A DNA stretch of 64,000 nt from Patescibacteria group bacterium (GTDB taxonomy: Bacteria > Patescibacteriota > Minisyncoccia > Moranbacterales > DUUL01), in the NCBI GenBank assembly GCA_015493225.1, contig WGDO01000031.1, positions 1,355-65,354 of the forward strand, written 5' to 3'. The notes beneath the pieces were generated by a model, which saw only the letters and a list, made by a program, of their open reading frames with translations, ran no database searches and was not told the origin of the DNA. This document shows, in pieces, positions 6 through 25,745 of the stretch; position 1 is the stretch's first letter; the number at the start of each line of letters is the position of its first letter. Position numbers and translations under genes: made by a program.

Positions 6-3000
6 TTGGTAGATAAAGAGTATGTGGATAATCAATTAATGTGGGAAATAATGCCGGCTAGTACCGGAGGAATGAGAATTCAGCCAAAAAATAATAGTGT
101 GCGACAAATTTTTGTGCAGAGAGATGATAATAGTTATACTCAGTTTAAGGTGAGGAATAATAATGACGCGGGCAATGGAGCGGGAGCTATTATTGAGTTG
201 AAGGGTTCTGGAGCAGACTATACCAATAATATGTATATTGGTAAGTATGGAGCAAGTTTTTGGATACCGGAATTACGAGATAATGGAGCAGTTTTAACAG
301 ATAAAAATCTTGTTATTGGTACCGCTTCTGATTCACATGAAATTCATTTTGTAACAGGAAATTCCTATACAGATTTGCAGCCTGTGGTAGTGGCCGATAA
401 TGAAGGGTTTAGATATACTTCTGATTTATCTGCGACTTTTGTGGATAGAACTTTGGTGGACAAGGCGTATGTAGACAATGCTATTATTGCTGGGACTAAT
501 AATATTTATACGGCGGACGGGACTTTGACTAGTGAAAGAGGGTTGAGTGGTAATGGAGGTGCGTTTGGGATTGCATTTACAGAATTAAATGAATTTAATA
601 TAGATGATACAGGCTCAATTAATTTTGAGGCTACGGGAGACGGTAATTTTACAGCTCCATCTTTTAATATAGGATCGTATAGTACTGTAACCCTTGATAT
701 GACAAGTGGAGTTTCTGCTATTTTTAATGACCATAGAGTTACAAAAACAGGCGTTGAATACGGAGCTGATTATTCTGCAAATTATACAAATCGTTCTTTG
801 GTGGATAAAGAATATGTAGACAATGCTATTACAGCTGGAATTAATAATATTTATACGGCGGATGGGACTTTGACGGGAAATAGAATTATTACTATGGGAA
901 CTAATAATCTTCAGTTTGATTCCGCCGGTCAGATAGGGTTATTATTTTTGGACAGTGTTAATAATAGGGTCGGAATTGGGACAAGTAGTCCAAATAACTT
1001 GTTTCAGGTAAGTGGGTTGATTGATTTTGATGATGCGACTTCAAGTACTTTTTTTGGAAAAGATGCCGGAACTAACAATACGGCCAACTTTAATACATTT
1101 ATTGGATTTGAAGCCGGCCAGGTAACAACTTCCGGTCAACAAAATGTATACATAGGATATAGGGCGGGTAATGCCAACACTACTGGAAAAAATGGTGTTT
1201 TTATAGGAGAGAGTGCCGGAACTATGAATACTACCGGTAAATCCAATACTTTTGTTGGGCGTAAATCTGGTGAAAATAATACAACCGGTAATGAAAATAC
1301 TTTTATCGGCAAAGAATCCGGTCGATATACTACTACCGGAGGAAATAATACCGGGCTAGGTACCCAATCTTTAAGAGGCAATACAACTGGTGAATATAAT
1401 ATGGCTTTGGGAAATAATTCTTTACAGTATTCTGCCAATGCCAATCGTAATGTTGCCATTGGGTTTAGTGCTTTAGGTGGGTTTGATCATGTATATAATA
1501 ATAATGTTGTAATTGGTACTGAGGCTGGCAATCAATCAGCGGATTTAGATGGATGTGTCATGATAGGGGATAGAGTTGGAGTGACAAATACCGTAAATAA
1601 TCGTTTAATGATTGATAATTCCGGAACAAATACACCGCTTTTGGATGGTTATTTTGATAGTGATATTTTGCGAGTAAATGGAACTTTTCAAATAAACGAT
1701 CCCAGCGGAACGGGGTATGCTTTTCCCATTGCCGATGGAACAAGTGGGCAAGTTTTACAAACGGATGGTAATGGAAATTTGTCTTGGGCTTCATCTTCTG
1801 GTGGTTCCGGAGTTACTGCCTCAAATGGCTTAACGGAAGTGGGAAATGATATTAGACTGGGCGGAACATTAACACAAAACACTACAGTGGGAAGTGATAC
1901 CGACAATAGCTATCTTATATTCAGAAATTATCAAAATAATATAGCATTTTTTTCTCATAAAGACAGTGCAAATTATTCATATTTGTCAATACATTCAGGA
2001 GCGGCTGATTTTCCGCATATAGCTTTTAGGACATATAATAATGGTAATAAATATGAAATATTGGCAGATAGTAGTTTAGGTGGAGTTATTACTGATGATA
2101 TAAATCATAGAGGTCTTCAATATTATGAAGATTATTCAGCTAATTATACGAATAGAACTTTGGTAGATAAGGAATATGTAGATAATCAAATTAGTCCATT
2201 TGACACTACTGCTAATGTTACCTCAAATGAAAACGACGATTATGCCAATGATGATTTTGTGTTTGGGTCTTCTAGCTTGGCTAATGACGGCAATGACAAT
2301 CACGATAGAAGATTTTTCTTTGATAAATCTAAGGCTGCGTTTAGGGCTGGTTATACTCCAGGTTCTGAATGGGATGATGCTAATGTTGGTGTTGGTTCAA
2401 TTGCATTAGGTAGCGGATATGTTGATGGTGAAGGTTCTATAACTAATGCTCCAATTGCTTCTGGTATTAGGTCGACAGCTATTGGTATCGATGCAGTTGC
2501 CAGCGGTGATGATTCATTCGCTATAGTGCGGTCTGAAGCTATTGGCAATACTTCATTTGCTATAACGAATGGTACTGCAAACGGCTCTAATTCAGTTGCA
2601 ATGTCTGGGGGTATAACTAATAGTTCCAATTCAGTTGCAATGGCACATGGTACAACAAATGGAAATTATGCAGTTGCTATTGGTAGTAATACTACTGCTT
2701 CTGCTTATGCAGTTGCAATGGGATATCTTTCAACGGCATCTGGTCAAGACTCTGTAGCAATGGGGCAAAATTCTACTGCCTCTGCACTTGGTTCTGTTGC
2801 CTTAGGTCTTAACCCTATTGCTTCTGGTAATGCGGGTATTGCCTTAGGGCAAGGGGTATTAGCTAAATCTTATGCTGAAATTGCTTTGGGTTCTTATAAT
2901 ACGGATTATAATCCTAACAATACTACTGATGTTGATTTGTCTGATAGGGCGTTTGTGATTGGTAACGGTATTAACGATGTAAATAGATCAGATGCATTTA

Positions 3001-6000
3001 TTATGCTAAAAGATGGTTCAAGTACGTTTACTAATGTAGCATCTTATGATGCTGATTATTCAGGTTCTTATACTAATCATTCTTTGGTAGACAAGGCTTA
3101 CGTAGATAATGCTGTTGCCAGCGGCGGTTCTTCCTCTTGGACCAAAACTGGAACAAACCTTTCCCCAACAACAGCAGGAGATGATGTTTTGTTAAGTGCT
3201 GGAGAAACATTAAGCATCGCTGATTTAGCTCAAGGTTCTATTCCTTTTATCGGTGTTGGAGGATTGTTTACTCAGGATAACAATAATTTATTTTGGGATT
3301 CCGGGAACAATACTATGGGCATTGGTACCAATACTCCTTCATCAGCTCTTGATATAAACTCAAATGGGGCTAATGGGGTAGCGATATTTACCATAGGCAA
3401 TACTGCCGGAGACATTCAAATGTTTAGAACAGATGCTACCCCAGATGGTTCGGTAGCTGGTTCAATTGGTGATTTGGCTTTTGACGGGACAAATGGTGAA
3501 GTGTATATTAAAAATTCTGGGAACGGAACAAATACTGGTTGGTTAAGAATGTTGCGACAGGGAGATTTGTCTTCTTTATGGGATGCAGATGCAGATACGG
3601 GAATTCAGGTTGAAGAAACAGCCGATGAAGATATGATTCGGTTTGATACGGCTGGCAGTCAGAGAATGATAGTAAACAATAATGGTTATGTTGGTATAAA
3701 TACAGAAAATTTTGCTCATAATGTTGCAACTTTTGGTTCTGTTTTACCAACGGTTAATATTGTACAATCAAATTTAACAATGGCTGGTATAAATATTGAT
3801 AGGTTTAGTGACGATGACCAACCGGCAAGATTTTCACTTGGAAAAGCAAGGGGTACTGAATCTACTCCGACAGTTCTTCAAGCGGGGGATGAAATTATGG
3901 AATTATCTGGCATAGCTTATGATGGTGGTCAATACATATCTTCAGGTGGTCTTATTGTAAAAACAGATGGAGTTCCGGGAGCAAATAATGTACCAACTGA
4001 AATGACTTTTTTAACTACTCAATCAGGTGCTTTAGGTTCGGATGAAAAAATGGTTTTGACTTCTGATGGTAAATTAGGTATTGGTAATTTGACTCCAAGT
4101 AGTACTTTACATGTCGAAAGTGTTTCTGGTAATGTTGCTGATCCAATTTTAACTTTAGAAAATGGTGGAGGAGATTTTCAAGTTTTTAATGTTGTTAATA
4201 GTCCAGAAAGTGATATTAGTGGCTCTATTGGAGATTTAGCAGTTGATAATACTCACGGTAATATATATATTAAAGGAACAGGGACAGGTACTAATACTGG
4301 ATGGTTGCAATTAGCCACAAATAGTGGTTCTTCTCCTTGGACTAAAACCGGAACAAATCTTTCTCCAACTGCTGCTGGAGATGATGTTTTGTTAAATGTC
4401 GGAGAAACTTTAAGTATTTCTGATTTAACTCAAGGTTCAATTCCTTTTATTGGAGCTAGTGGTTTAGTTTCCCAGGATAACAATAATTTATTTTGGAATA
4501 ATGCTGATAATAGGTTGGGGATTGGAACAACTAATCCAAATTATTCTTTAGCGGTAGTTGGAACTGGTTCCGGAACAAATGGAAGTTTGGAATTGGCAAC
4601 CTATGCTAATGCTGGACCCCCTTCTGCTTTGTATTTACATAGATCAGGTGGTACAGAGGCTGCACCTACAGCTGTAACAAACAGTATGCCAATGGGCGGA
4701 TTAATGACGGGAGGATATGATGGAACTAGTATGGTAGCATATTCTGCTGGGGTGCAAATGGATGCAACAGAAGATTGGTCTAATTCAGCCCATGGAACAA
4801 GACTATTTTTTTCAACAACAGCAAATGGAACAACTGGTATGAGTACTAAAATGGTAATTGACAATAATGGTAGGGTTGGCATAGGAAGTGCTATTACTCC
4901 AAATGCTTTATTGGATGTTCGTGGAGATGCAGTGTTCAATGATGATGCCGGAGATTATGATTTTAGAATTGAGGGAGATACTGATCAAAATTTATTTTTT
5001 GTGGATGCTGGGAATAATAGGGTGGGTATTGGTACGGCTACTCCTAGTGTTAAATTACAAGTTAGTGGACAGGCAAGAGCTTCCAGCTTTAGGTCGGCCA
5101 ATGGTACAGCTGGGTCTCCATCCTATAGATTTGATGGAGACACAAACACGGGATTATTTAGAGCGGCGGCCGATAATTTAGCTTTTACAACGGGAGGGTC
5201 TGAAGCAATGAGAATTGATGCTAGTGGCAATTTAGGACTTGGAATTACAGTTCCTACCTATAGGATGACAATAGCTGGAGGAGCGTTAATGTTGGATGGT
5301 ATTGCAGCAGCTCCAACTGCATCCCAGGGTTACGCCGGTATTTATACTAATAATGGAGAGTTATATGCTTTTGACGAAAGCGCTAATTCAACACAAATCT
5401 CTCCTCATGATAAGAATGGCAAGTGGTGGTATAACTCTACTAATTTAGAAACTGGTAGTACTCTGCAAATTAAAATGGAAGACTTGACTAAGGATTTAAA
5501 TAAACTCTTAGGAGGAGGATATATTTTGGAGAATGGAACATTAGTTGACGAGGGGCAAAATGTTATTGAAAATTTAAGAACTAATATTTTGAGTGAGGAT
5601 AAAGTTATAGAGGATTTACGAGAAGCGTTGAAAAACATTGATGTGGAGGAATTGGACAACAGGATTGATGATAATGAAAATTTGATTGGTGAAATTAATA
5701 ACAGTATTAAAAATATCATAGATGAGATCAAACAACTTTGGGAAAAGGTAACAAAAAATTCTGATGATATTGAGGGATTAAAGAAAGAAAATGACGAGTT
5801 AAAAAAAGAGCTTTGTAAAGAAAATGATGATTATTCTTGGTGTGAAGATAAGGATATTAATAATGAAGATAGTGGTGATGAAGAAAATAATAATGAAGAA
5901 GTTCAGAATGATGGACAGCCAATGGAAGAGGGAATTGTTGAAGATGATGCAGATAATGTAGGAGGGGATAATAATTCTGGGGTAGCAGAAGATACAATGG

Positions 6001-6104
6001 GTAGTGATGATGAGCAAGTAGTTGAAAATCAAAATGATAATGAAGACGGTGACAATGGGGCTGTAAATAGTCAGCTTGACAATAAACAAGATAGTGTGAA
6101 GTAA
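6..6104 (+). CDS. Giant repetitive surface or adhesin-like protein of more than 2,032 aa, 5'-partial because the repeat continues upstream of the window. It has tandem ~380-aa repeats, a recurring 'NNLFWxxxNNR(V/L)GIGTxxP' tail-fibre-like motif, a coiled-coil segment and a poly-acidic C-terminal tail.
   Basis: A single 6.1-kb ORF. The motif 'Y(S/T)ANYTNR(S/T)LVDKEYVDN' occurs at least 6 times. There is an internal duplication at ~85% nt identity (nt ~3135-3310 versus ~4335-4510; SWTKTGTNLSPTxAGDDVLL...QDNNNLFW). The C-terminus is DE-rich low complexity. The first codon in the window (TTG) lies inside a repeat unit identical to the one at nt 2150-2185. Confidence 0.6.
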   Translation: MVDKEYVDNQLMWEIMPASTGGMRIQPKNNSVRQIFVQRDDNSYTQFKVRNNNDAGNGAGAIIELKGSGADYTNNMYIGKYGASFWIPELRDNGAVLTDKNLVIGTASDSHEIHFVTGNSYTDLQPVVVADNEGFRYTSDLSATFVDRTLVDKAYVDNAIIAGTNNIYTADGTLTSERGLSGNGGAFGIAFTELNEFNIDDTGSINFEATGDGNFTAPSFNIGSYSTVTLDMTSGVSAIFNDHRVTKTGVEYGADYSANYTNRSLVDKEYVDNAITAGINNIYTADGTLTGNRIITMGTNNLQFDSAGQIGLLFLDSVNNRVGIGTSSPNNLFQVSGLIDFDDATSSTFFGKDAGTNNTANFNTFIGFEAGQVTTSGQQNVYIGYRAGNANTTGKNGVFIGESAGTMNTTGKSNTFVGRKSGENNTTGNENTFIGKESGRYTTTGGNNTGLGTQSLRGNTTGEYNMALGNNSLQYSANANRNVAIGFSALGGFDHVYNNNVVIGTEAGNQSADLDGCVMIGDRVGVTNTVNNRLMIDNSGTNTPLLDGYFDSDILRVNGTFQINDPSGTGYAFPIADGTSGQVLQTDGNGNLSWASSSGGSGVTASNGLTEVGNDIRLGGTLTQNTTVGSDTDNSYLIFRNYQNNIAFFSHKDSANYSYLSIHSGAADFPHIAFRTYNNGNKYEILADSSLGGVITDDINHRGLQYYEDYSANYTNRTLVDKEYVDNQISPFDTTANVTSNENDDYANDDFVFGSSSLANDGNDNHDRRFFFDKSKAAFRAGYTPGSEWDDANVGVGSIALGSGYVDGEGSITNAPIASGIRSTAIGIDAVASGDDSFAIVRSEAIGNTSFAITNGTANGSNSVAMSGGITNSSNSVAMAHGTTNGNYAVAIGSNTTASAYAVAMGYLSTASGQDSVAMGQNSTASALGSVALGLNPIASGNAGIALGQGVLAKSYAEIALGSYNTDYNPNNTTDVDLSDRAFVIGNGINDVNRSDAFIMLKDGSSTFTNVASYDADYSGSYTNHSLVDKAYVDNAVASGGSSSWTKTGTNLSPTTAGDDVLLSAGETLSIADLAQGSIPFIGVGGLFTQDNNNLFWDSGNNTMGIGTNTPSSALDINSNGANGVAIFTIGNTAGDIQMFRTDATPDGSVAGSIGDLAFDGTNGEVYIKNSGNGTNTGWLRMLRQGDLSSLWDADADTGIQVEETADEDMIRFDTAGSQRMIVNNNGYVGINTENFAHNVATFGSVLPTVNIVQSNLTMAGINIDRFSDDDQPARFSLGKARGTESTPTVLQAGDEIMELSGIAYDGGQYISSGGLIVKTDGVPGANNVPTEMTFLTTQSGALGSDEKMVLTSDGKLGIGNLTPSSTLHVESVSGNVADPILTLENGGGDFQVFNVVNSPESDISGSIGDLAVDNTHGNIYIKGTGTGTNTGWLQLATNSGSSPWTKTGTNLSPTAAGDDVLLNVGETLSISDLTQGSIPFIGASGLVSQDNNNLFWNNADNRLGIGTTNPNYSLAVVGTGSGTNGSLELATYANAGPPSALYLHRSGGTEAAPTAVTNSMPMGGLMTGGYDGTSMVAYSAGVQMDATEDWSNSAHGTRLFFSTTANGTTGMSTKMVIDNNGRVGIGSAITPNALLDVRGDAVFNDDAGDYDFRIEGDTDQNLFFVDAGNNRVGIGTATPSVKLQVSGQARASSFRSANGTAGSPSYRFDGDTNTGLFRAAADNLAFTTGGSEAMRIDASGNLGLGITVPTYRMTIAGGALMLDGIAAAPTASQGYAGIYTNNGELYAFDESANSTQISPHDKNGKWWYNSTNLETGSTLQIKMEDLTKDLNKLLGGGYILENGTLVDEGQNVIENLRTNILSEDKVIEDLREALKNIDVEELDNRIDDNENLIGEINNSIKNIIDEIKQLWEKVTKNSDDIEGLKKENDELKKELCKENDDYSWCEDKDINNEDSGDEENNNEEVQNDGQPMEEGIVEDDADNVGGDNNSGVAEDTMGSDDEQVVENQNDNEDGDNGAVNSQLDNKQDSVK

Positions 6105-6147: not shown

Positions 6148-8013
6148 TTGTCGCCTACAAAGAATAAACTTTGCTTAAGCTCAATAGTTTCTAAAAATAG
6201 CTTTAAAAAAAGTAAAGATATTGAAAATAATGAAATGTTAGATTTGATTAAAAAAATTAGTGAATTGAAAATACCGATAATTGTAATTATTGGTGGAATT
6301 TTTTTGATATTTATAGCCTTGTTTTTAAAAAAGGCTTATATTAAAAAACAGCATAAATTTTTTATTGGATTGGCAACCTTGGGGATGAGTTTATTGATTT
6401 TTTTAATTTTACTGGTATTAAATATTCCTTGGTTTCAAAATTTAAATTATTTACAAACTAGATTGTATAATCCGCAGAAAGAAGAAAATCAACATGCTAA
6501 ACTTGATACGACCCAAGATGTTATTCAGACACTTGATTTTAATAAGTTGAATAATACTTTAAATATTTCTGATGGCAATACTGTTAATCTTTCATCTTTA
6601 ATAGAAAAGTATAAGGCTGGATTAGGTTTGAGATTAGATGACGATACTTTTTCCCTAACCAGTAAAAATAGTGAGGGAACCTATGGGTCTAAAAATAAAA
6701 TTCCTCAAATTAAAGTTGACGAGCAGGGGCGTATTTTAGATGTTACAGAAATTTCTTTAGAAGACTCTGGAAATGGCAATGGTGAGGCTCAAATTTTATC
6801 CTTTGATTCCAGTACGGATAGTTTGTCTATTTCTGATGGTAATGAAGTGGACTTGTCTTCCCTGAATAATAATTATGATGGGGTTGCTGGTTCAGTTTTT
6901 TTTGCTGGAGCGAATGGAACGTTAGCTGAAAATAATGGAAATTTATTTTGGGATAATAATCATAATAGACTGGGACTGGGGACAACTACGCCGGATGAGC
7001 AGTTACATATTACGCAAAATATGAGGTTAGACCATGCTTTTGAAGATAAAGATGGAGAAGCTGGTACTGTAGGTCAAGTTTTAACATCAACGGGTACGGG
7101 AACTGACTGGGTTGATAATGTGGCGTACCCAATTCCATTTATTTCATCTTTGACACCAGTAACTGTTATTAATGGTTCTACTAATACAATTACCATTACT
7201 GGTTATAATTTTACACCAACATCGGCAGTAGCTATTTCCGGAGGTAATGTTGTAAACTCAGTAAATATTTTATCACCGGTGGAAATGCAGGTAAATGTTA
7301 CAGCGGTTGGAATAGATGGTAGCTATGATATAGTTATTTCAAATGATGGTGTTTTAAATACAGAATGGACTGGTAACGGAGTTGGATTGTTCAAAGTGAA
7401 TACCAGCGATGGAACAACTCAAGCTACGGCGGGAATAAGTTGTAAACATATTTTAGATGATGGTTTTTCTACGGGTGATGGAACTTACTGGATAAATCCC
7501 GATGGAGGTAGCACGGCCAATGCTTTTCAAGCATATTGTGATATGACAACGGACGGAGGCGGTTGGACTAGAATTGATTATGCTGCTGATTTACCTCATC
7601 AGGCACAATTTTCTGGTGGAGATGCTGATCGTTGGTTGCCAAATAATTTTACTTTTGTTTTAACTGATACACAAATTAATAATATCAGAAGTGTTTCGAC
7701 GGAAGGTAAACAGAGATATCACGGCACTTGTCAGGGAGTAATTCATTATCGTTATCAAACTAATAATTATGCTTATGCCTTTGGCTTTAGATTTCAAAAT
7801 GGAGATGAAACAGTATTTGATCAACAAAATTATCCTAGTACTAATATAGCAGTACCTAATGATGGTTGTCGAATTAATAATAATACGATGAGTAGTACTG
7901 ATTTTGACATTGCTGACATTAGGGTGCCGGTTATTAATGTGCATTCACGAGATAATTCTAGTACGGAACAATTTGGTTCACCTTTAACAAGTTATCCGGC
8001 TTGGTTAAGATAG
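6148..8013 (+). CDS. Membrane-anchored protein with an IPT/TIG-like domain and a C-terminal fibrinogen-related domain (FReD).
   Basis: N-terminal TM helix (IPIIVIIGGIFLIFIALFL). Repeated 'SISDGNxVxLSSL' units. It shares the 'NGNLFWDNNHNRLGLGTTTP' motif with the upstream giant protein. The 'ITITGYNFTPTSAVAISGG' segment looks like an IPT domain. 'GTYWINPDGG...AFQAYCDMTTDGGGWTRIDY' matches the fibrinogen C-terminal domain signature (CDMxTDGGGWT). Confidence 0.6.
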   Translation: MSPTKNKLCLSSIVSKNSFKKSKDIENNEMLDLIKKISELKIPIIVIIGGIFLIFIALFLKKAYIKKQHKFFIGLATLGMSLLIFLILLVLNIPWFQNLNYLQTRLYNPQKEENQHAKLDTTQDVIQTLDFNKLNNTLNISDGNTVNLSSLIEKYKAGLGLRLDDDTFSLTSKNSEGTYGSKNKIPQIKVDEQGRILDVTEISLEDSGNGNGEAQILSFDSSTDSLSISDGNEVDLSSLNNNYDGVAGSVFFAGANGTLAENNGNLFWDNNHNRLGLGTTTPDEQLHITQNMRLDHAFEDKDGEAGTVGQVLTSTGTGTDWVDNVAYPIPFISSLTPVTVINGSTNTITITGYNFTPTSAVAISGGNVVNSVNILSPVEMQVNVTAVGIDGSYDIVISNDGVLNTEWTGNGVGLFKVNTSDGTTQATAGISCKHILDDGFSTGDGTYWINPDGGSTANAFQAYCDMTTDGGGWTRIDYAADLPHQAQFSGGDADRWLPNNFTFVLTDTQINNIRSVSTEGKQRYHGTCQGVIHYRYQTNNYAYAFGFRFQNGDETVFDQQNYPSTNIAVPNDGCRINNNTMSSTDFDIADIRVPVINVHSRDNSSTEQFGSPLTSYPAWLR

Positions 8014-8071
8014 CATTTTGTGGCATAATACATTATATAGAACTTATCTAGGGTTCTTTTCTTTCAATGTT

Positions 8072-8177
8072 CCGCTAAGCTTTTTGAATGTTATTTTCTA
8101 CCTGATGTTTGACGCTTTGTTGATTAAAGAGGGCGTCAAACATGCGTCCGAAAATAACATCCAAAAAGCTTAGCGGG
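8072..8177. repeat. ~105-nt asymmetric hairpin element, copy 1 of 4 (arms 'aagcttt(t/c)tggatgttattttctacctgatgtttgac' and 'gtcaaacatgcgtccgaaaataacatcc(a)aaaagctt').
   Basis: Near-perfect inverted repeat read directly from the sequence. Related copies are at 8834-8936, 21853-21953 and 63879-63979. The shared upstream flank 'tagaacttatctag' is at 8038 and 8801. Confidence 0.8.
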
Positions 8178-8241
8178 TAAAGGGCTTAGAAGTCTAATAA
8201 AAACTAGGAGAATAAATGGTTAAAAAGTTTAATTACAAGAG

Positions 8242-8781
8242 ATGTTAAAAAGAAAAATAAAAATTTTTATTTTTATTGGAGTTATTTTGTCTATATTTAA
8301 TGGCATTAATATTGTTCAGGCCAAAGATAAACAAAAAAATACTTATGTAAAAGACGGAATGGTTTTTGTGGTGGGTAAACATAAACCAGATGAGAGAATT
8401 AAATCAAAAGACAAAGTTAATAAGCGTATTAATCCTAAAAAAGCAACAACTAGTAATATTAGTGAACAGGATATATCTGATAACGAGAAGATGGTTGAAA
8501 ATATAGATAATGAAGATAGCCTGGAAAAAATAACAGAAAAAGATGTAACTGAAAAAGAAGGTTTAATATATGTATTTATTGGGGCAATAAGGGGGCTTTG
8601 GGAAAAAATAACTTCCTTAGGTGAAAGAATGGATAAGCAGGATGATAATATTAATAATTTAGTGGAAACAGCAACATCAACAACGGATGAGCTTACTGAC
8701 CATAATAAAAGATTGGAAAAATTAGAGGAAACTGTTTTTAAAGACGGGGCTAATCAATCTGATGGTAATAAAGAAAAATAA
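8242..8781 (+). CDS. Hypothetical secreted or membrane protein, Lys/Glu-rich with a coiled-coil C-terminus.
   Basis: The ORF has an N-terminal hydrophobic segment (IFIFIGVILSIFNGINIVQA) and no recognisable catalytic motifs. An RBS-like 'aggag' lies upstream. Confidence 0.4.
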   Translation: MLKRKIKIFIFIGVILSIFNGINIVQAKDKQKNTYVKDGMVFVVGKHKPDERIKSKDKVNKRINPKKATTSNISEQDISDNEKMVENIDNEDSLEKITEKDVTEKEGLIYVFIGAIRGLWEKITSLGERMDKQDDNINNLVETATSTTDELTDHNKRLEKLEETVFKDGANQSDGNKEK

Positions 8782-8833
8782 ATGTTATAATAAGGTTAGT
8801 TAGAACTTATCTAGAATTTTTTCTGCAATGTCC

Positions 8834-8936
8834 CGTCAAGCTTTCTGGATGTTATTTTCTACCTGATGTTTGATGCTTCGTTAATTAAAAAAGGCATCAA
8901 ACATGCGTCCGAAAATAACATCCAGAAAGTTTGACT
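8834..8936. repeat. ~105-nt asymmetric hairpin element, copy 2.
   Basis: Same arms as copy 1 and preceded by the same 'tagaacttatctag' flank (8801). Confidence 0.8.
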
Positions 8937-8995
8937 AATAAAGAATTTAGGAGAATAGCCCTGAATGAGTTATTAAATATTTTTTACTAATTGAA

Positions 8996-10465: not shown

Positions 10466-12049
10466 ATGAAAAATAAATTTTATATTACGACGCCGGTTTA
10501 TTATGCTAATGCTCAACCGCATATTGGTCACGCTTATACAACGGTGGCGGCGGATACAATAGTAAGGTTCAAAAAACTGCAGGAAAAAGAAACTTATTTT
10601 TTAACAGGGATGGATGAACATGGGGCGAAAATTGCCCAGAAAGCAAAAGCGGAAGGAGTGGAGCCTTTGGAATTGGTGGATGGGGTAGTGAGCGATTTTA
10701 AGGCGTTGTGGGAGCGTTTGGGTATTGAGTATGATGTTTTTACTAGAACGACTGATGCTAAGCATAAAAAAGCTATTCAGACGGCAATGCAGAAGTTGTA
10801 TGGCGAAGGAATAATTTATAAAGGTGAGTACGAGGGATTGTATTGTGTTGGTTGTGAGCAATTTAAAAATGAAAGTGATTTGGTGAATGGAAAGTGTCCG
10901 GATCATAATACGGAACCGGAAATTATGAGGGAGGAAAGTTATTTAATGAAAATGACGGAAATGCAGGATTGGTTGGTGGGGGCAATTAAAAAAGATGAGT
11001 TTAGAATTAGGCCAGAAAAATATAGGAGAGAAATTTTGTCTTTTTTGGAAGATAATAAATTAGAGGATTTATCTGTTTCTCGAAAGAATGTGCAGTGGGG
11101 TATTCCCTTGCCTTTTGATGAAAGTCATACAGTTTATGTTTGGTTTGATGCTTTTTTAAGTTATGTCACTGGGTTAAATTGGGATGGAGCTAAGTTTGCC
11201 GACGAGATTGGTCAGAAGTTTTGGCCGTCGGATGTTAATTTGATTGGTAAGGATATTTTGCGGGTACATGCTACTATTTGGCCGATAATGTTAAAACATC
11301 TGGGGTTGGAAGTGTCTCGGGGTTTGTTTGTGCACGGGCATATTTTGTCTGGTGGGAAAAAGATGAGTAAGAGTTTGGGAAATGTAATTGGTATTGATGA
11401 AATGTTGGATGAATTTGGTTCGGAGGCAACTAGATATTTATTATTGTCAGCTGGACAATTTGGAGAAGATGTGGATTTGACGATGGAGAGAATGAGGGAA
11501 AAATATAATGCGGATTTGGCGAATGGGTTGGGGAATCTGCTTTCGAGAGTAGTTACTCTTTCGAGCAATTTTAAATTTAAATTTGTAAATTTTAATTCAA
11601 TTTTAAATGATGAAATTTTAAATGATAATTTAGGCGAGCAAAGCATTGCCTTTAGAGCGGAACGCAGTGTAGCGAAAGGCGAGGATTTCCCGTCCGACCA
11701 AGTCATCCGGGTGGATAGCGAGCGGGAAAGTTTTGCTAAACTCATTGAGAGTTTTGAGTTTGACAGGGCATTGAAAATGATTTGGAAGATTGTGCAGGAT
11801 AGTAATAAATTGATAGAAGAAACTAAGCCTTGGGAGTTGGCTAAGCAGGTCGAAACTGAGCATTCGCCAGTCGAAAGTCGAGAGCCTAAAGTCGAAAGTG
11901 TCGGAGAATTTGAAAAAGTGATGAAAGAATTATTTAGTAATTTGCTTGAAGTTTCCGGGTTGTTGCAAATTTTTATGCCGGAGACGGCGGAGAAAATTAA
12001 GAAGCAATTGGAAACGGGGGAGAAGGAGATTTTGTTTGAACGAAAGTGA
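10466..12049 (+). CDS. metG: Methionyl-tRNA synthetase.
   Basis: Class I aaRS signatures 'PHIGHAYT' (HIGH) and 'KMSKSLGN' (KMSKS). The C-terminal region carries repeat-derived in-frame inserts at ~11580-11640 and 11848-11905. Confidence 0.9.
   Translation: MKNKFYITTPVYYANAQPHIGHAYTTVAADTIVRFKKLQEKETYFLTGMDEHGAKIAQKAKAEGVEPLELVDGVVSDFKALWERLGIEYDVFTRTTDAKHKKAIQTAMQKLYGEGIIYKGEYEGLYCVGCEQFKNESDLVNGKCPDHNTEPEIMREESYLMKMTEMQDWLVGAIKKDEFRIRPEKYRREILSFLEDNKLEDLSVSRKNVQWGIPLPFDESHTVYVWFDAFLSYVTGLNWDGAKFADEIGQKFWPSDVNLIGKDILRVHATIWPIMLKHLGLEVSRGLFVHGHILSGGKKMSKSLGNVIGIDEMLDEFGSEATRYLLLSAGQFGEDVDLTMERMREKYNADLANGLGNLLSRVVTLSSNFKFKFVNFNSILNDEILNDNLGEQSIAFRAERSVAKGEDFPSDQVIRVDSERESFAKLIESFEFDRALKMIWKIVQDSNKLIEETKPWELAKQVETEHSPVESREPKVESVGEFEKVMKELFSNLLEVSGLLQIFMPETAEKIKKQLETGEKEILFERK
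11848..11905. repeat. 'aagtcgaaagt' microsatellite family copy, in frame inside metG.
   Basis: The DNA 'cgaaactgagcattcgccagtcgaaagtcgagagcctaaagtcgaaagtgtcgg' encodes HSPVESREPKVESV. The same motif family occurs at 9760-9810, 15705-15740, 19590-19690, 53455-53495, 60285-60380 and 61685-61790. Confidence 0.6.
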
Positions 12050-13473: not shown

Positions 13474-13721
13474 TGTTGTTTACAAGGTAATTGTTATCTT
13501 TTGTAATTATAACACTAATTTTAAAAACAACAATGATTTTTGGATTGGTTTTATTTTTGATAATATTTTAAAAGAATTTATTTGAGTTGTAGTGAAATTG
13601 ATCAGGTAATTACTTAAAAACCCTCCAAATTTTCTCGCTACTTTTATTTATCAACTACGTTTATAAATAAAAGTAGCGAGAAAATTTGACTCCCTTTACA
13701 CAGGGGGTGGGCTAGGAAATG

Positions 13722-17397: not shown

Positions 17398-18894
17398 TTG
17401 TTTAATTATTTTTTTATGAAAATTGCAATAGATACGGCGGATTTGGATTGTGAGAGGATTGATGGGACAAGGGTTTATATTCAGAATGTTTTGAAGTACT
17501 TGGGGAGATTGGCTCCGGAGGATGAGTTTTTTTTGTTTCATAAAACGGAGTATAATAAGTTGTTGCGACCAGCGGAATTTAAAAATTATCATGATAAAAG
17601 TTTGGGCAAGGGTTTTTGGTGGACGCAGATTAAATTTGCGCGAGAAGTGCGAAAATTGAATTCTGATGTTTGTTGGATGCCAATTCAGCAAATACCTGGT
17701 CTCAATTTTCAATTTTCAATTTTCAATTTTCAATCAATTTTCAATGATTTAATTTTAAATTTTAAATTAATTTTTAATGTTTTAATTTTGAATAAGCGAA
17801 AAAATGATAGGCGAGCGCGGGAAATAAATAAGAGGAACAATACCGAGGCAAGGCCTCGGTATTCGGAGAAAGTGAAATATGTTGTTACGATTCATGATTT
17901 GGCGTTTAAATTTTTTGGGAATCATTTTCCGTTGGTGGATAGAATAAAGTTGAATTGGTACACGGATGTGGCGGTGAAAAGGGCGGATAAGATTATTGCC
18001 ATTTCGGAAGCGACGAAAAAAGATTTGATTAAATTCTATCCGGAAGTTGATGAAAATAAAATAGTAGTGGTGCGTCATGGGTTCGATAGGGAAAATTTTG
18101 AGCAGGAGTTTAGTGAAAGAGAAAAAAAAGTGTTTGCAAAAAAATATAATTTAATAAAAAAAGAGGTTGGTGAAAATGCTGAAATTCAAAATTCAAAATT
18201 CAAAATTCAAAATTATTTACTGTATGTTGGGGCGATTCAGCCGAGGAAGGATTTGGTGACTTTGATTAAGGCCTTCGATAAAATAAAATCTCAAGATGCA
18301 AGAAGCAAGATACAAACAAATCTCAAGATACAAGGGACAAGATACAAACAAATGACAAATGATAAATTACAAATGACAAATGATAAATTACAAATGACAA
18401 ATGACGAGACGCAGATAAATGACGGGTTGCAGGCAATATCAGATGTAGATGTTTCTAATTTGAAATTGGTGTTGGTGGGGGAGAAGGCATGGAAATCGGA
18501 AAGTACATTGAGGGCAATTGACAAATCGGAGTTTAAAGATGATATAATTGTGACAGGGAAGGTTGACTTTAGGGAATTAGCGATGTTTTATCGTTTTGCT
18601 AAGGTTTTTGTGTTTCCATCGTTGTATGAGGGATTTGGAATTCCAATTTTAGAGGCGATGGCTAGTAAAACGCCGGTAATAGTAGCGGATAATTCTTCTT
18701 TAACGGAAGTGGGCGGAGAAGCGGTATTGAAATTTAAAACGGGAAGCAGTGACGATTTGCAAAAACAATTACGAAAACTTTTGGAAGATAAAAATTTACA
18801 AGATAAAATAGTTGGACGAGGTCTGGAGCAAATTAAAAAATTTAGTTGGGAGAAGTGTGCGAGGGAGACGTTGGAGATTTTGAGGGGAATGTAG
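17398..18894 (+). CDS. GT4-family glycosyltransferase (group 1) containing satellite-derived in-frame inserts.
   Basis: N-terminus 'KIAIDTADL'. The C-terminal GT-B signature 'EGFGIPILEAMASKTPVIVADNSSLTEVGG' is present. Inserts are at 17700-17800 (AT satellite, read as LNFQFSIFNFQSIFN) and 18290-18420 (MTNDKLQMTNDKLQMTNDE). Confidence 0.8.
   Translation: MFNYFFMKIAIDTADLDCERIDGTRVYIQNVLKYLGRLAPEDEFFLFHKTEYNKLLRPAEFKNYHDKSLGKGFWWTQIKFAREVRKLNSDVCWMPIQQIPGLNFQFSIFNFQSIFNDLILNFKLIFNVLILNKRKNDRRAREINKRNNTEARPRYSEKVKYVVTIHDLAFKFFGNHFPLVDRIKLNWYTDVAVKRADKIIAISEATKKDLIKFYPEVDENKIVVVRHGFDRENFEQEFSEREKKVFAKKYNLIKKEVGENAEIQNSKFKIQNYLLYVGAIQPRKDLVTLIKAFDKIKSQDARSKIQTNLKIQGTRYKQMTNDKLQMTNDKLQMTNDETQINDGLQAISDVDVSNLKLVLVGEKAWKSESTLRAIDKSEFKDDIIVTGKVDFRELAMFYRFAKVFVFPSLYEGFGIPILEAMASKTPVIVADNSSLTEVGGEAVLKFKTGSSDDLQKQLRKLLEDKNLQDKIVGRGLEQIKKFSWEKCARETLEILRGM
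17700..17800. repeat. AT-rich 'caatttt/aaatttt' satellite embedded in frame in the GT4 gene.
   Basis: 'ctcaattttcaattttcaattttcaatcaattttcaatgatttaattttaaattttaaatt' has no stop codons in the gene frame. Confidence 0.7.
18290..18420. repeat. 'caaatgacaaatgataaattacaaatgacaaatga' microsatellite, in frame in the GT4 gene.
   Basis: Tandem 12/15-nt units. The same family is at 20300-20400, 21160-21345 and 29360-29410, and in reverse orientation at 32035-32058. Confidence 0.75.
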
Positions 18895-19069: not shown

Positions 19070-21445
19070 ATGAAAAATATTAACAAAATTTTTAAGAATA
19101 AATTTTTGGTTGGATTGGGTGTGATGGTGTTTTTGGTATTGGTGATGAGGTTGTGGTCATTTGGTAATTTGTTGACTTTTAAGATGGATCAGGCGAGGGA
19201 TATTAAATTAATTGAGGAGGCCTATGATGGAGGGGTTGGTGAATTACCTTTATTGGGTCCGCGGGCGGCGAAAACTTATTTGCGACTTGGTCCGATTTTT
19301 TATTATTTTGAATATGGGGCGATGTTGATTTTTGGAGATCAACCTTGGTCGGTGGCGGTGCCGGACTTGATTTTTTCTATCTTGGCTATTCCCTTATTTT
19401 ATTATTTTTTGCGACAAGCTTTTAGTCGCAAGGTGAGTTTTTTGACGACGATAGTTTTTGCTTCGTCGTTTTTTCTTAATCAATACGGGCGATTTGCTTG
19501 GAATCCGAATTCCATTCCGTTTTGGAGTTTGTTGTATTTTTTGGGGATATATAAGGTAGTCAATCCCACTTCGCTGAAGCTTCGAGGGATAAAAAGTCAA
19601 AAGTCCATAAAATCTGTAAAGTCTATAAAGCCAAAAGTCGAAAGTTTACCCCGTCGAATGACTTTGGGTCGAAAGTCAGATGTTAATGTTTTTAATAGTA
19701 AAGGCAGTGATTTAAAAACCCCCCAAAATTTTCGTTCCTCAAATTTTAACCCCCTTTATACAGGGGGTGGTAAATGGTGGTTGTTGGTGGCGGTGATAGG
19801 TTATGGGGTGGCTAGTCAGTTGCATTTTACGGCAATGTTGGCATATCCTCTGATTGGGGGATTATTTGTATTGGTGATTGCGTTTTGGGAAAGTTGGAAA
19901 GAGGGTAATTCAAGAGAAAATAAAAATATATCAAAAAACAAAAAAATATTGTCAATTGACTACTTGACTATACGGGGTTTGAGGAGGTTTGTTTGGAGAT
20001 TGGGACAAGGAATTTCCTGGAAATATTGGTTGGGAGCGGTGATGATTTTGGGAGTGATGTATTTACCGATGGTTTTGAGTGAAATTTACACTCATGGAGA
20101 TAATTGGGTTCAGTTTAAGTATGCTTTGAGCGGGAGAGGGAAGCCTGAATTTTCTTTGTATGCGAAAATTATTCAGTCGGTGAAATTGCATAGTGAATAT
20201 TTTTGGTTTAGTTTAACGTCTTGGGGTGGAGGAGCAGGAACTGTTGGTTTGATTGGTTTTTTTGGTGTAGTGATTGGTGCTATATTTAGTGTATGGAAAA
20301 AATTTCAAGATACAAAATACAAGGTACAAACAAATTCCAAGATACAAGATACAAGGTACAAACAAATGACAAATGACAAATTACAAATGATAAATGATGG
20401 TGAGGAAATGACAAATGATATTGGTGTAAATAAAACAGAAAAACCCCCCAAAGTTTCTCGTGATCTCGAAACTTCCCCACTTCGTCAAAATGACTTCAAG
20501 GGGCAGGCGCCAGGGGTGGATGACAGAGTAATATTTTTTGTTTTGGTTGGTGTTTGGTGGATGGTGATGTTTTTGTTGTATACGAAGTTGGCGTTTAATG
20601 TGTTGAAACCGAGATATTGGTTATTGGAGGCGCCAATTTTTTTTGTGGTGTTGGCGGTTTTTTTGGAGGGGTTGTTTAGAAATGGGCTTAAGAAGATTAA
20701 GGGGAAATATGTTACTTATTTAGTGGTGATCGTTTTAGTAGGGATGAATTTGTGGGCGACGGGGAATTGGTATTGGGAATTGAAGAACCAAAAAGATAGT
20801 TCGTTGCCACTATGGCATTTGAAATTAAAAGACCAAAATAAAATTCCTTGGGGGCAATTGCAAAAAAGTGCAAATTATATTGAAAATTTATCTAAACAGA
20901 CGGATAAGGAGGTTTGTTTTTATACGACAGGAGAATATCGTCCGGTTTATGATTATATTTTTAAGCAACGGGGATTGAGTGAAAAAATTAGACGAATATC
21001 TTTTAGTAAGGATACAAATGATAATTGTTTGTTTATAGCCATTGATCATCATCAGCATAGAGAAACTCCGAGAATTCCAAAAGATCATAAAAATGAGTTT
21101 GAGAAAGTAGAGAAGAGGGAGGTTGGGTTTGTGACAATATGGCAAGTTAAAAAAAGAATACAAGAAACAAGACACAAACAAATTCCAAGGTACAAGAAAC
21201 AAGACACAAACAAATTCCAAGGTACAAGAAACAAGATGCAAATAAATGACAAAGCACAAACAACAAATGACAAGTCGCAAATGACAAATGACAGTGGGGG
21301 AATGACAAATGACAAATTACAAATGACAAATAACAGGGAACAGGGAGCAGTGAATAAGGAGCAGGGAGTAGAGAATAATAAAAAGAAAAAAGTTAAAAAG
21401 CCGAGGAGGGTTGAGAGGGTAAGGTGGAAGGACTTATTTAATTAG
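19070..21445 (+). CDS. GT39/PMT_2 (ArnT-like) family membrane glycosyltransferase carrying multiple repeat-derived insertions.
   Basis: About 12 TM helices. The N-terminal region 'KMDQARDIKLIEEAYDGG...LGPIFYYF' is typical of dolichyl-phosphate-mannose/undecaprenyl-phosphate-dependent glycosyltransferases. Inserts are at 19561-19690, 19715-19785, 20300-20530 and 21160-21345. Confidence 0.5.
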   Translation: MKNINKIFKNKFLVGLGVMVFLVLVMRLWSFGNLLTFKMDQARDIKLIEEAYDGGVGELPLLGPRAAKTYLRLGPIFYYFEYGAMLIFGDQPWSVAVPDLIFSILAIPLFYYFLRQAFSRKVSFLTTIVFASSFFLNQYGRFAWNPNSIPFWSLLYFLGIYKVVNPTSLKLRGIKSQKSIKSVKSIKPKVESLPRRMTLGRKSDVNVFNSKGSDLKTPQNFRSSNFNPLYTGGGKWWLLVAVIGYGVASQLHFTAMLAYPLIGGLFVLVIAFWESWKEGNSRENKNISKNKKILSIDYLTIRGLRRFVWRLGQGISWKYWLGAVMILGVMYLPMVLSEIYTHGDNWVQFKYALSGRGKPEFSLYAKIIQSVKLHSEYFWFSLTSWGGGAGTVGLIGFFGVVIGAIFSVWKKFQDTKYKVQTNSKIQDTRYKQMTNDKLQMINDGEEMTNDIGVNKTEKPPKVSRDLETSPLRQNDFKGQAPGVDDRVIFFVLVGVWWMVMFLLYTKLAFNVLKPRYWLLEAPIFFVVLAVFLEGLFRNGLKKIKGKYVTYLVVIVLVGMNLWATGNWYWELKNQKDSSLPLWHLKLKDQNKIPWGQLQKSANYIENLSKQTDKEVCFYTTGEYRPVYDYIFKQRGLSEKIRRISFSKDTNDNCLFIAIDHHQHRETPRIPKDHKNEFEKVEKREVGFVTIWQVKKRIQETRHKQIPRYKKQDTNKFQGTRNKMQINDKAQTTNDKSQMTNDSGGMTNDKLQMTNNREQGAVNKEQGVENNKKKKVKKPRRVERVRWKDLFN

Positions 21446-21713: not shown

Positions 21714-21776
21714 TCGAAAAACCCCCAAAGTTTCTCGTGACCTCGAAACTTTAATCCCCTTTATACAGGAGGTATT
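21714..21776. repeat. Composite module 'gaaaaacccccaaagtttctcgtgacctcgaaactttaatcccctttatacaggaggt' (intergenic copy).
   Basis: Related copies are at 13691-13712, 19715-19785 and 20441-20500 (in frame in the GT39-like gene), 22853-22908, 25746-25802 and 47983-48036, and in reverse orientation at 55125-55185. Confidence 0.75.
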
Positions 21777-21852
21777 AAAAGTGCTTGAAAAATGGGGGGA
21801 GTTGGCGTACAATGAATATTGTAGAATTTGTTTTGGATTTTTCTGATACCCC

Positions 21853-21953
21853 GTCAAACCTTCCAGATGTTATTTTCTCCCTGATGTTTGACTTTTTACT
21901 GATTGAAAAATGTGTCAAACATGCGTTTGAAAATAACATCTAGAAAGCTTGAC
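21853..21953. repeat. ~100-nt asymmetric hairpin element, copy 3.
   Basis: Arms 'gtcaaaccttccagatgttattttctccctgatgtttgac' and 'gtcaaacatgcgtttgaaaataacatctagaaagcttgac'. It sits ~60 nt upstream of the 22013 gene. Confidence 0.8.
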
Positions 21954-22012
21954 TGATATTTATGGAGATAATCCTGAATTAATTAATGATTATTTTTTAA
22001 ATGTAATAAGTT

Positions 22013-22597: not shown

Positions 22598-22852
22598 GTT
22601 AGCTTGCAATTTACAGTTTATGGTTTGTAGATGAGCGCATGGTTTATAATTAGCAGTGATTAAATTTAAAATTTAAAATTTTAAGTTCTAAATGAATAAT
22701 TAATTATGAATTTTGAATTTTTATTTAAACTTTTTATTTCTCATTAAAAATAACGACTTTTTCTTTTAGAATAGAATCTGTTATTATATATTTAATATTA
22801 AAGACTAATCATCTAAAACTCATTTAAAGTTTAAGACTTGAAAGCTGAACTG

Positions 22853-22908
22853 AAAAACCCCCAAAAATTATCGTTCCTCGAATTTTGACCCCCTTTACAC
22901 AGGGGATG
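22853..22908. repeat. Composite module 'aaaaacccccaaaaattatcgttcctcgaattttgaccccctttacacagggg'.
   Basis: Same family as 21714-21776; read directly. Confidence 0.75.
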
Positions 22909-22940
22909 TCCGAAGGGAGCTATTAGATAAATTAAATTAA

Positions 22941-23852: not shown

Positions 23853-24700
23853 AAATATTAACAAAAATTAGAAAAAGATTTTTGGTGACTGTGGAGGATG
23901 TTAAAAAATATTCTTCAGTTTCTAAGGAGTTGATAGATGATGAAAAAATATTGAACAAGGGATTTTTTTTGCAAGGGAGTAATGGGCAGGCAGTTATTTT
24001 GATGCATGGTTGGTCTTCAACTCCTTATACCATTCGAAAACTAGGTGAATATTTACATCAACAGGGTTATACGGTTATTGGTCCGAGATTAACTGGACAT
24101 GGTACAAAACCAGAAGATTTGCAGGGGGTAAAGTGGCAGGAGTGGCTAGATGATGTTGAAAAAGTTTACAAGGGAATTGTTGGAAAATATAATAAAATTT
24201 TTGTGGTTGGAACTTCTCTCGGTGGAAATTTGGCAATTTTGTTAGCGAGTAAGTTTCCACAAATTTCAGGTTTGGTTTTATTGGCAACGCCATATAAACC
24301 TAAGTCTAGAATAAAAACATATGTTTTTATATTTTTGGCAAAGGTATTTAGGATAAAATTATTACCAAAATATTATCCGGCTAGTATAAAAAGTTTAGGT
24401 ACGGCTATTACACCAATGGTTTCTTATCAAAAATACCCTGGGAGTAGTGTAGTGGAGTCTATGAAATGTATTTTAGTTTCTCGAAAAAAGATAGGAGCAA
24501 TAAAACAACCTTGTTTAATTATTCAATCAAGTGATGACCATATGATTTTATCAGAAAGTGCTGATAAAATTTATGAGGAAATTTCCTCAAAGGTAAAAGA
24601 AAAAAAATATTTGCAGAACACTTATCATTCTTTTATATCAGATGTGAATAGTCGATATGTTTTTAAGGACATTTATAATTTTTTGAAAGTCAATGGTTAA
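23849..24700 (+). CDS. Alpha/beta-hydrolase (carboxylesterase-like), paralog 1.
   Basis: 'VILMHGWSSTP', the 'GTSLGGNLA' nucleophile elbow (GxSxG), and the C-terminal Asp/His region. It overlaps the next gene by 8 nt. Confidence 0.7.
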   Translation: MKILTKIRKRFLVTVEDVKKYSSVSKELIDDEKILNKGFFLQGSNGQAVILMHGWSSTPYTIRKLGEYLHQQGYTVIGPRLTGHGTKPEDLQGVKWQEWLDDVEKVYKGIVGKYNKIFVVGTSLGGNLAILLASKFPQISGLVLLATPYKPKSRIKTYVFIFLAKVFRIKLLPKYYPASIKSLGTAITPMVSYQKYPGSSVVESMKCILVSRKKIGAIKQPCLIIQSSDDHMILSESADKIYEEISSKVKEKKYLQNTYHSFISDVNSRYVFKDIYNFLKVNG

Positions 24701-25487: not shown

Positions 25488-25539
25488 TACTACGAATCTA
25501 CAAATCTATTACGAATTTACAAATGTACGAATTGTGATT

Positions 25540-25745
25540 TTTAAATCCTAATTTCTAAAGCCTAAACCCTAAACAATACTAAATTTCAAAATTCAAATGT
25601 TTCAAACAAGAGATATTACAGTTTTGAATTTTAGAATTAAATAATTTGAATTTGTTTAGAATTTAGAAATTAGGATTTAGTATTTTAATCAAAATTCAAA
25701 ATTTAAAATTCATTTAGAACTTAAAATTTAAAACTTAAAATTCTT
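25540..25745. repeat. AT-rich 'aattttaaatttta / ttgaattttagaatt' satellite (representative of at least 14 intergenic occurrences).
   Basis: Similar tracts lie at 21470-21520, 22660-22700, 34020-34040, 35650-35820, 37200-37260, 39730-39900, 42490-42600, 44910-44970, 48690-48880, 52300-52490, 53480-53640, 54420-54520 and 59170-59215. Confidence 0.7.

Follow-up and report, generated by a model that had tools for sequence, protein, structure and literature searches.

What are the four hairpins of about 100 nt that recur in a 64-kb stretch of contig WGDO01000031.1, and why do three of them stand directly before genes? We call the whole stretch of 64,000 nucleotides the window; its methionyl-tRNA synthetase (MetRS) groups with Candidatus Moranbacteria, in the Candidate Phyla Radiation (CPR). 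An earlier note on this DNA had seen in an unpaired hexamer of the hairpins a sign of selection on an RNA structure, and had named a cis-regulatory leader or attenuator, a terminator or insulator, a small RNA (sRNA), and a miniature inverted-repeat transposable element (MITE) as candidates. We find that the feature is a mobile, non-coding, palindromic insertion between a promoter and a start codon. With a probability of about 0.8, we conclude that the hairpins are the cores of a non-autonomous DNA transposon (MITE) family in Candidatus Moranbacteria, because the elements have terminal inverted repeats, a target-site duplication, empty sites and many dispersed copies, and lack coding capacity.

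The hairpins occupy the positions that the note had given them, on which inspection of the sequence, matches to 26-mers from the arms, an nhmmer profile and a covariance model all agree:

8072-8177, plus strand: core hairpin of copy 1, with a 6x6 internal loop TACCTG/GCGTCC (-58.8 kcal/mol, z-score -11.3; covariance model 130.6 bits)
8834-8936, plus strand: core hairpin of copy 2 (-54.6 kcal/mol; covariance model 134.5 bits)
21853-21953, plus strand: core hairpin of copy 3, with loop TCCCTG/GCGTTT (-34.5 kcal/mol on the plus strand, -45.2 on the minus strand; found by the covariance model)
63879-63979, plus strand: core hairpin of copy 4, a perfect palindrome in which the right side of the loop is converted to CAGGTA (-68.7 kcal/mol, z-score -18.9)

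The left-arm 26-mer has five matches in the window at up to three mismatches, copy 4 being matched on both strands, and the right-arm 26-mer has three; shuffled sequence contains no match to either. The nhmmer profile and the covariance model, the latter run with filters off, each returned exactly four copies within the 64 kb and no further ones. The next covariance-model match, at 13613-13701 with 36 bits, is a member of a different repeat family. As RNA, the four copies fold with energies from -34.5 to -68.7 kcal/mol (z-scores from -8 to -19). The 6x6 internal loop of copies 1-3, which is TACCTG on the left and GCGTCC on the right in copies 1 and 2 and a variant of this in copy 3, gives way to full pairing in copy 4, so the note was correct in describing the same non-complementary right-arm hexamer in three copies and a perfect palindrome in the fourth. 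It had also placed copies 1-3 at 60-65 nt before plus-strand genes, and the measured distances from hairpin end to ATG are 65 nt (gene at 8242), 60 nt (8996) and 60 nt (22013).

Each hairpin forms the centre of a longer imperfect palindrome, nested and 162-184 bp in length, 5'-GAACTCATCTAGGG...CCCTGAATGAGTTA-3'. When the copies are aligned, homology runs past the hairpin, and the flank on the 5' side, GAACTCATCTAGGGTTTTTCCTTTCTAATATTCC, pairs with GGACAAAGGGTTTAGGAGGATAACCCTGAATGAGTTA on the 3' side. The size of about 100 nt given in the note is therefore right for the hairpin span but too short for the full feature, whereas the additional 5' flank that it had noticed in copies 1 and 2 is real and is the element's terminal inverted repeat. 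The terminal inverted repeats GAACTCATCTAGGG and CCCTGAATGAGTTA pair with each other in full-length folds. Folded at full length, the element forms 67 pairs, and over all copies 91% of these positions hold a standard pair. There is no conserved open reading frame (ORF) in the elements, and loop lengths differ by 2-5 nt among copies, which would shift any reading frame. The four full elements are:

8040-8223, plus strand: copy 1, subfamily A, decayed, with its 5' terminal repeat GAACTTATCTAGGG at 8040-8053
8803-8972, plus strand: copy 2, with the direct repeat TTA on both sides (8800-8802 and 8973-8975)
21824-21985, plus strand: copy 3, old, with mismatched stems; an orthologous copy lies at L093:9875-10036 (L numbers denote loci outside the window)
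63842-64000, plus strand: copy 4, subfamily B, with terminus ATAACTTATTTAAAC...; the element continues past the window end, and its 3' end lies outside

The 3' end of copy 1 carries an insertion of about 18 nt, and the terminal repeat there is partly deleted (...CTAGGAGAATAAATGGTTA). Subfamily B, which contains copy 4 and the copies L077a and L083, has diverged flanks. Because L077a and L083 retain the asymmetric loop GCGTCC, we take the perfect palindrome of copy 4 to be derived.

Two ways in which the element might be translated were considered. A peptide inside the hairpin was ruled out by the loop indels, which shift its frame. The 3' terminus of the element reads AGGAGG-N10-ATG AGT TAA (ATG ATT TAA or ATG GTT TAA in subfamily B), and a mini-ORF for ribosome loading was downgraded on two grounds: the ATG lies within the terminal repeat, and only 1 of the 50 window genes has a Shine-Dalgarno-like motif (GGAG, GAGG or AGGA, 4-20 nt before the start). 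Leaders in the window are AU-rich, and translation initiation appears to be Shine-Dalgarno-independent. At 8217-8249, 3' of the decayed copy 1, the window contains a 10-codon ORF (ATG GTT AAA ... TGT TAA), preceded by GGAGAATAA, which overlaps the start codon at 8242 of a 179-aa gene (ATGTTAA). It could be a translationally coupled upstream ORF made by the 3' end of the copy 1 element.

The family extends beyond the window. It comprises about 25 copies, four of them in the window, at about 20 distinct insertion sites, each with a different flank; members were drawn from one related metagenome-assembled genome (MAG), two metagenomes, the window and fetched loci of relatives. A scan of a genome collection found genuine relatives only in one Moraniibacteriota MAG, JALVDV01, the other matches being mostly chance 19-mers. 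A gapped-pattern scan of metagenomes yielded 15 further loci in Ga0256831 and Ga0256832, and one candidate from the metagenome scan (L080) was discarded as a chance match. A scan of viral contigs gave no match to the element. Several contigs (L069, L077 and L085) end inside an element.

Comparison with relatives reveals both filled and empty sites. The gene order DUF389–135-aa gene–MetRS is kept in three related genomes (MetRS 76-81% identical). At the DUF389 site, L086, L088 and L089 have no element but all retain the extended -10 box TG(t/c)TATAAT. The sequence is TAG[TTA]AATATT at the empty sites and TAG[TTA]-element-[TTA]AATATT at the filled site in the window; three empty sites thus bear out the TTA duplication of copy 2. 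The site before a pgsA-like gene is filled in the window and in L093, and empty in L092 and in L094, whose protein is 96% identical to the window's. The copies at this site in the window and L093 are orthologous, with derived 3'-flank changes in common, and by the distribution of filled and empty sites the element here was lost, or gained, more than once. Conversely, L069 is syntenic with 24682-27933 of the window and has an element before a hydrolase gene there, where the window has none.

The note had suggested checking for target-site duplications, and we found one of 3 bp. Among 13 independent copies, 29 of the 39 flanking positions match and five sites are perfect (P = 2 x 10−6, with a chance rate of 0.37 per position); shifted registers score worse. 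The target triplets have no consensus (TTA, AAG, AAT, AAA, AGA...). Together with the terminal inverted repeats and the empty orthologous sites, this duplication supports the MITE among the note's candidates. The 179-aa gene (from 8242) is bracketed by copies 1 and 2, and a composite transposon made up of copy 1, this gene and copy 2 was ruled out, copy 2 having its own perfect duplication.

All copies of the family are intergenic, in short spacers, and most of them begin shortly after a promoter-like site. In the window these sites are:

8001-8029, plus strand: promoter-like site before copy 1 (-35 TTGGTT, 17-nt spacer, TGg-CATAAT), whose -10 box ends 10 nt before the element
8783-8791, plus strand: extended -10 box TGtTATAAT of the DUF389 gene, which ends 11 nt before copy 2 and is kept at element-free orthologues
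21785-21813, plus strand: promoter of the pgsA-like gene, TTGAAA-17-TACAAT, whose -10 box ends 10 nt before copy 3
63802-63830, plus strand: promoter-like site TTGTCA-17-TAGTAT, which ends 11 nt upstream of copy 4

We scored a site as promoter-like if it had a TAnnnT -10 box together with either a TGn extension or a TTG -35 element at a spacer of 16-18 nt. Such a site lies directly upstream in 15 of the 20 copies (16 of 20 with copy 4 in the correct register). By comparison, 5.8% of window positions overall satisfy the criterion, and 10.9% of those up to 60 nt before a gene do so; for 15 of 20 copies against the latter background, P = 3 x 10−11. The -10 box ends 9-16 nt before the 5' terminus of the element, and mostly 10-12 nt before it. 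The promoters of copies 3 and 4 were also found independently by a generic promoter scan, and the site before copy 1 overlaps the stop codon of the upstream gene (8011-8013). The spacer sequences of the promoters are unrelated among copies. The pgsA-like promoter TTGAAA-17-TACAAT is kept in four genomes, at filled and empty loci alike, and since empty sites keep the same promoters, the promoters are older than the insertions.

Judged by the flanks, the element is in sense orientation to its neighbouring genes in at least 17 of the 18 informative copies; with the upstream promoters, this makes the location of the family relative to genes non-random. One exception, L074, is antisense to the flanking genes but lies on the G-rich strand; it is the only copy here beside lagging-strand genes, and its orientation follows the skew and not the gene; L033 lies between convergent genes, and L001 has no recognisable promoter. 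The distance from element to start codon ranges from 18 to about 69 nt, and is 18-46 nt in most copies. Because this distance varies, preservation of the leader alone cannot explain the fixed distance to the -10 box. The downstream genes are unrelated: those in the window encode a secreted 179-aa protein, a DUF389 protein and a PgsA-like enzyme, and those elsewhere an alpha/beta hydrolase, an epimerase, a DUF4012 protein, ribosomal protein S2, a ComF-like protein, Hsp20 and a CMD-family protein.

We also found two solo 5' termini that lack a hairpin, at L092:1905-1924 (GAACTCATCTAGGGTTTTTT, a perfect 20-mer) and at L078:925-938 on the minus strand (AATTTATCTAGG). Both stand 11 nt after a -10 box. 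They may be either deletion derivatives or a sign that the terminus itself is tied to the transcription start.

If the family is a MITE, its behaviour could be pictured as follows. The window itself holds no transposase or integrase; a DDE-type transposase encoded elsewhere would recognise the terminal repeats, make 3-bp staggered cuts and move the element in trans. Transcription would begin some 7 nt past the -10 box and hence 3-5 nt before the element, which would place the start of the element at about +3 to +5. The element would then form the first ~170 nt of the mRNA, at its extreme 5' end, folded as a rod-like hairpin, and the native AU-rich leader of 20-30 nt before the start codon would be left free for Shine-Dalgarno-independent initiation. 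On the model of Correia and ERIC elements, the 5'-terminal stem may shield the mRNA from 5'-end-dependent decay, or the duplex may be a substrate for a double-strand RNase. On the same analogy the effect on the host gene is likely to be at the RNA level, with altered mRNA stability. The complementarity of the arms would be kept largely by processes acting on DNA, namely template switching in the quasi-palindrome and inversion between the arms. The near-constant position and the sense orientation could arise because selection favours a stem at the 5' terminus, or because insertion is targeted to the initial transcribed region, and the solo 5' termini at 11 nt in L092 and L078 are compatible with both.

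Several observations weigh against a simple MITE. The transcription of the element, its start site and the processing of its RNA are predictions only. The duplication is imperfect at 8 of the 13 sites, and at the copy 3 site it needs a reconstructed ancestral GTG. An autonomous insertion sequence (IS) with matching terminal repeats was not found in the window or in the fetched loci. The tight spacing behind the -10 box is kept even with 46-69 nt of leader after the element (L078, L081), so tolerance of insertions is by itself an insufficient explanation. Finally, the sense RNA folds better than the antisense RNA in 11 of 14 copies, with 85 versus 40 G.U pairs in total, and in the outer helix G.U pairs outnumber A.C mismatches by 66 to 17 on the sense strand. 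This last bias is suggestive and could mean real selection on RNA, but common descent of the copies and C-to-T pressure on the G-rich strand confound it.

The alternative that draws most on these points is a domesticated module of the 5' untranslated region (UTR), in which former MITE copies are retained by selection and the rod-like hairpin stabilises the mRNA or has it processed, for example as an RNase III site. It would account for the sense-only orientation, for an element that begins 3-5 nt from the transcription start, and for the maintained pairing. Stem-loops at the 5' terminus shield bacterial mRNAs only if very few unpaired bases precede them, and the constant interval of 10-12 nt from the -10 box, which persists even with a long leader, fits a module of this kind, as do the greater stability and G.U excess of the sense RNA and the outer-helix bias. 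The orthologous copy at the pgsA-like site has moreover been kept since the split between the window lineage and L093. On the other side, that element was lost without evident consequence in the close relatives L094 and L092, decay is seen in old copies (copy 3, L093 and, in copy 1, the 3' end), a few copies are promoterless or between convergent genes (L001, L033), and the G.U excess can stem from the C-to-T bias of the G-rich strand. The mid and inner helices, in addition, show no strand bias (G.U versus A.C, 17 versus 14 and 14 versus 15, respectively), nor does the hairpin tested alone (17 versus 20). Equal numbers of G.U and A.C in the mid and inner helices speak against selection on RNA, because selection on the RNA of one strand would favour G.U. 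We regard a domesticated 5'-UTR module as possible, but hold the idea only tentatively.

The pairing of the stems might seem to favour RNA selection more directly. The compensatory changes that the note had proposed looking for are present: double changes occur in 16 of the 34 pairs of the hairpin alignment and in 16 of the 67 pairs of the full-length alignment. The latter number was reached by 5 of 500 shuffles and is confounded by template switching and strand mutation bias. Such covariation is no proof of RNA selection, because DNA-level processes produce double changes here. In copy 4, compared with its subfamily relatives, a single tract has changed in which five of the six loop bases became the exact complement of the left side, a pattern that points to template switching in a quasi-palindrome. 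In L019, L081 and L082a the core is exactly reverse-complemented, apical loop included, while the flanks keep their orientation, so that the core is inverted relative to both flanks and gene direction; these copies are at different loci, and therefore the inverted-core version also spread.

Less probable than a domesticated module, and in our view unlikely, is promoter-guided integration: the transposition machinery itself would home in on the initial transcribed region (the open-complex bubble at its downstream edge, for instance) and insert the element in one fixed orientation, so that position and orientation would be mechanistic and owe nothing to selection. In its favour, no consensus is shared by the target triplets and yet the distance to the -10 box is near-constant, and the two solo 5' termini (at L092:1905 and L078:938) also lie 11 nt past a -10 box. 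About 20% of the copies have no recognisable promoter, however (L001, L033 and L074), compact genomes offer few other places in which an insertion could survive, no cognate transposase was found in the window or the fetched loci, and the orientation also tracks the G-rich, probably leading, strand, which suggests some other mechanistic bias. The stronger form of this proposal, a general position rule by which a CPR transposase integrates at active promoters via the open-complex bubble or RNA polymerase and so adds 5' hairpins to RNAs, strikes us as doubtful.

The three remaining candidates fare much worse. A family of stand-alone sRNA genes with their own promoter would explain the promoter directly upstream of the element and the pairing of its 5' and 3' ends into a closed rod. 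The same promoters, however, are present at element-free orthologous sites, where they drive the downstream gene; no terminator follows the element, and in most copies a start codon comes within 18-46 nt. The sRNA candidate of the note is thus very improbable.

We give still less weight to a dedicated cis-regulatory RNA, such as a riboswitch, an attenuator or a thermometer-like leader whose loop binds a ligand or protein, and with it to the note's inference that a conserved loop implies selection on RNA. Elements of the family do sit upstream of genes, their 6x6 loop is conserved across species, and their stems carry compensatory changes. But the downstream genes are functionally unrelated and their orthologues in relatives lack the element. 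The loop itself is shared by descent, was inverted in one subfamily that then spread, and was erased in copy 4 in one step; the lack of a G.U excess over A.C in the hairpin points the same way. The invariance of the left side of the loop is in part an artefact of the search pattern, since L093 (found by synteny) and L082b (found by profile) differ there. The internal loop is best read, from its distribution among subfamilies, as a founder feature inherited across them and not as a selected RNA motif. In Rfam searches at the gathering threshold the window yielded one tRNA only, with the element unmatched, and a permissive search gave only spurious, sub-threshold matches to microRNA-precursor hairpins.

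Least credible of all is an intrinsic terminator or insulator of the upstream gene, or an array of integron attC sites between cassettes: copies do lie between co-directional genes, three genes are bracketed by two copies (window 8242-8781, L077 and L082), and imperfect palindromes with unpaired bases look attC-like, but the stems are not followed by a T-run, none of the four copies was called as terminator-like, the promoter stands before the hairpin and not after it and belongs to the downstream gene, the window has no integrase, the neighbours are housekeeping genes spread over 56 kb and not a cassette array, and homology ends at AAC and GTT with the outer four bases neither conserved nor complementary, which does not match RYYYAAC/GTTRRRY.

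As a MITE family, the elements have counterparts in other bacteria. The Correia elements (CREE) of Neisseria are likewise non-coding MITEs of about 100-170 bp with terminal inverted repeats and a short target duplication, dispersed in intergenic regions near promoters and polymorphic in presence or absence among strains; CREE are co-transcribed with their neighbours, as is predicted here. CREE are reported to be able to bind RNase III and to be cut or shielded by it (PMC2649163). The two families have no known sequence relationship, and one is from Proteobacteria and the other from CPR. The target duplication of CREE is TA, and their ends can give rise to promoters; in the present family the promoter is there beforehand and the 3-bp duplication has no consensus. 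The present family also differs in being palindromic over its whole length, at a near-fixed distance from the -10 box and in one orientation.

The ERIC/IRU elements of Enterobacteria and Vibrio are full-length imperfect palindromes of about 127 bp, intergenic and transcribed, with long RNA hairpins predicted and indel variants known. The family described here shares with them the full-length imperfect palindrome, the intergenic location, the predicted long RNA hairpin and internal indel variants. Unlike it, ERIC are found in both orientations, for the most part inside operons or behind them, and there is no sequence similarity; to our knowledge, neither a fixed relation to promoters nor clear target duplications have been described for ERIC. 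RUP and BOX of Streptococcus pneumoniae and the cyanobacterial Nezha elements are also small, non-autonomous, structured intergenic repeats for which an IS transposase acting in trans has been proposed, and some of these MITEs affect the expression of downstream genes. For RUP a partner IS (of the IS630-Spn1 type) has been proposed, and in this whole group the structure and distribution rules differ from those seen here.

Template-switch correction of quasi-palindromes, which is a mutational mechanism and not an element family, would account for the 6-nt loop conversion in copy 4 and for many of the compensatory changes in the arms, and probably also for the inverted-core subfamily. By analogy, then, the present family may resemble Correia and ERIC elements in mode of action; it does not share their sequence, and its placement is much more regular. 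Full-text literature searches turned up no description of MITEs or of intergenic repeats from CPR, Patescibacteria or Moranbacteria.

The genes of the window are housekeeping and cell-surface genes only. Its G+C content is 34%, and the GC skew of the plus strand is +0.2 to +0.47 nearly throughout, being positive even under minus-strand genes. At its start, 6-6104 encodes a giant repeat-rich surface protein of more than 2032 aa here and 2704 aa over the full contig, weakly matched by YadA_head, and 6148-8013 encodes a 621-aa protein with a fibrillar collagen C-terminal domain (COLFI, E = 9 x 10−16) and a TIG domain. Two relatives lack, at their syntenic loci, both the COLFI gene and the 179-aa gene that copies 1 and 2 enclose. 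At L093:4107-5225 (GCA_027023225.1) there is a gene for a 372-aa protein whose precomputed Pfam domains are Phage_int_SAM_4, Phage_integrase (tyrosine recombinase) and a GIY-YIG nuclease.

The window contains several other kinds of repeat. A second, unrelated family of about 60 nt (AAAAACCCCCCAAAATTTTCG...TTTTGACCCCCTTTACACAGGGGG) has copies at 19712-19774, 21717-21779, 22851-22913, 25744-25806, 47980-48042 and, on the minus strand, 55114-55174, and a long-hairpin variant at 13613-13719. Its copy at 19712-19774 is in frame within the PMT_2 glycosyltransferase ORF 19070-21445, where it encodes DLKTPQNFRSSNFNPLYTGGGK, and is absent from the L094 orthologue; in this it resembles Rickettsia palindromic elements. 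A second insertion of about 31 aa in the same glycosyltransferase looks related to it. MetRS (10466-12049) is 527 aa long compared to about 480 aa in relatives, owing to three in-frame linker insertions, especially at 11553-11656, and the first of these (FKFKFVNFNSILNDEI) is encoded by short repeats of the same AATTTTAAATTT type as are found in intergenic regions.

Dense, short, AT-rich tandem repeats whose period is about 8 nt (AATTTTAA/G) occur on both strands in more than 20 intergenic regions between 9.8 and 59.3 kb, for example at 17706-17793, 37201-37288, 42476-42628, 53462-53640 and 54410-54553, and these repeats (families D1-D5, D14 and D20) are frequently arranged as inverted pairs that flank genes. 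Arrays of 7-nt units (ACAAATG and ACAAGAT types) lie at 18277-18440, 20291-20432 and 21139-21368, inside ORFs 17398-18894 and 19070-21445; the low-complexity stretches that result, TNDKLQMTND for example, vary in length between strains. Tandem repeats with a period of 9 nt (AAGTCCATA / AAGTTCATA, family D8) are found at 19585-19638, 60266-60328 and 61680-61767.

Palindromic mobile DNA of this kind can yield abundant compensatory changes without RNA selection, which calls for caution in the discovery of RNA motifs, and the family also breaks metagenome assemblies. For the organisms that carry it, the finding means that CPR genomes, usually held to be small, streamlined and poor in mobile DNA, can harbour an active repeat family, and that this family alters the 5' leaders of housekeeping genes between closely related strains. 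If its regular placement reflects targeting, it would represent a new insertion-site rule; if it reflects selection, it would amount to a natural experiment on RNA structure at the 5' terminus in organisms that make no use of Shine-Dalgarno sequences.

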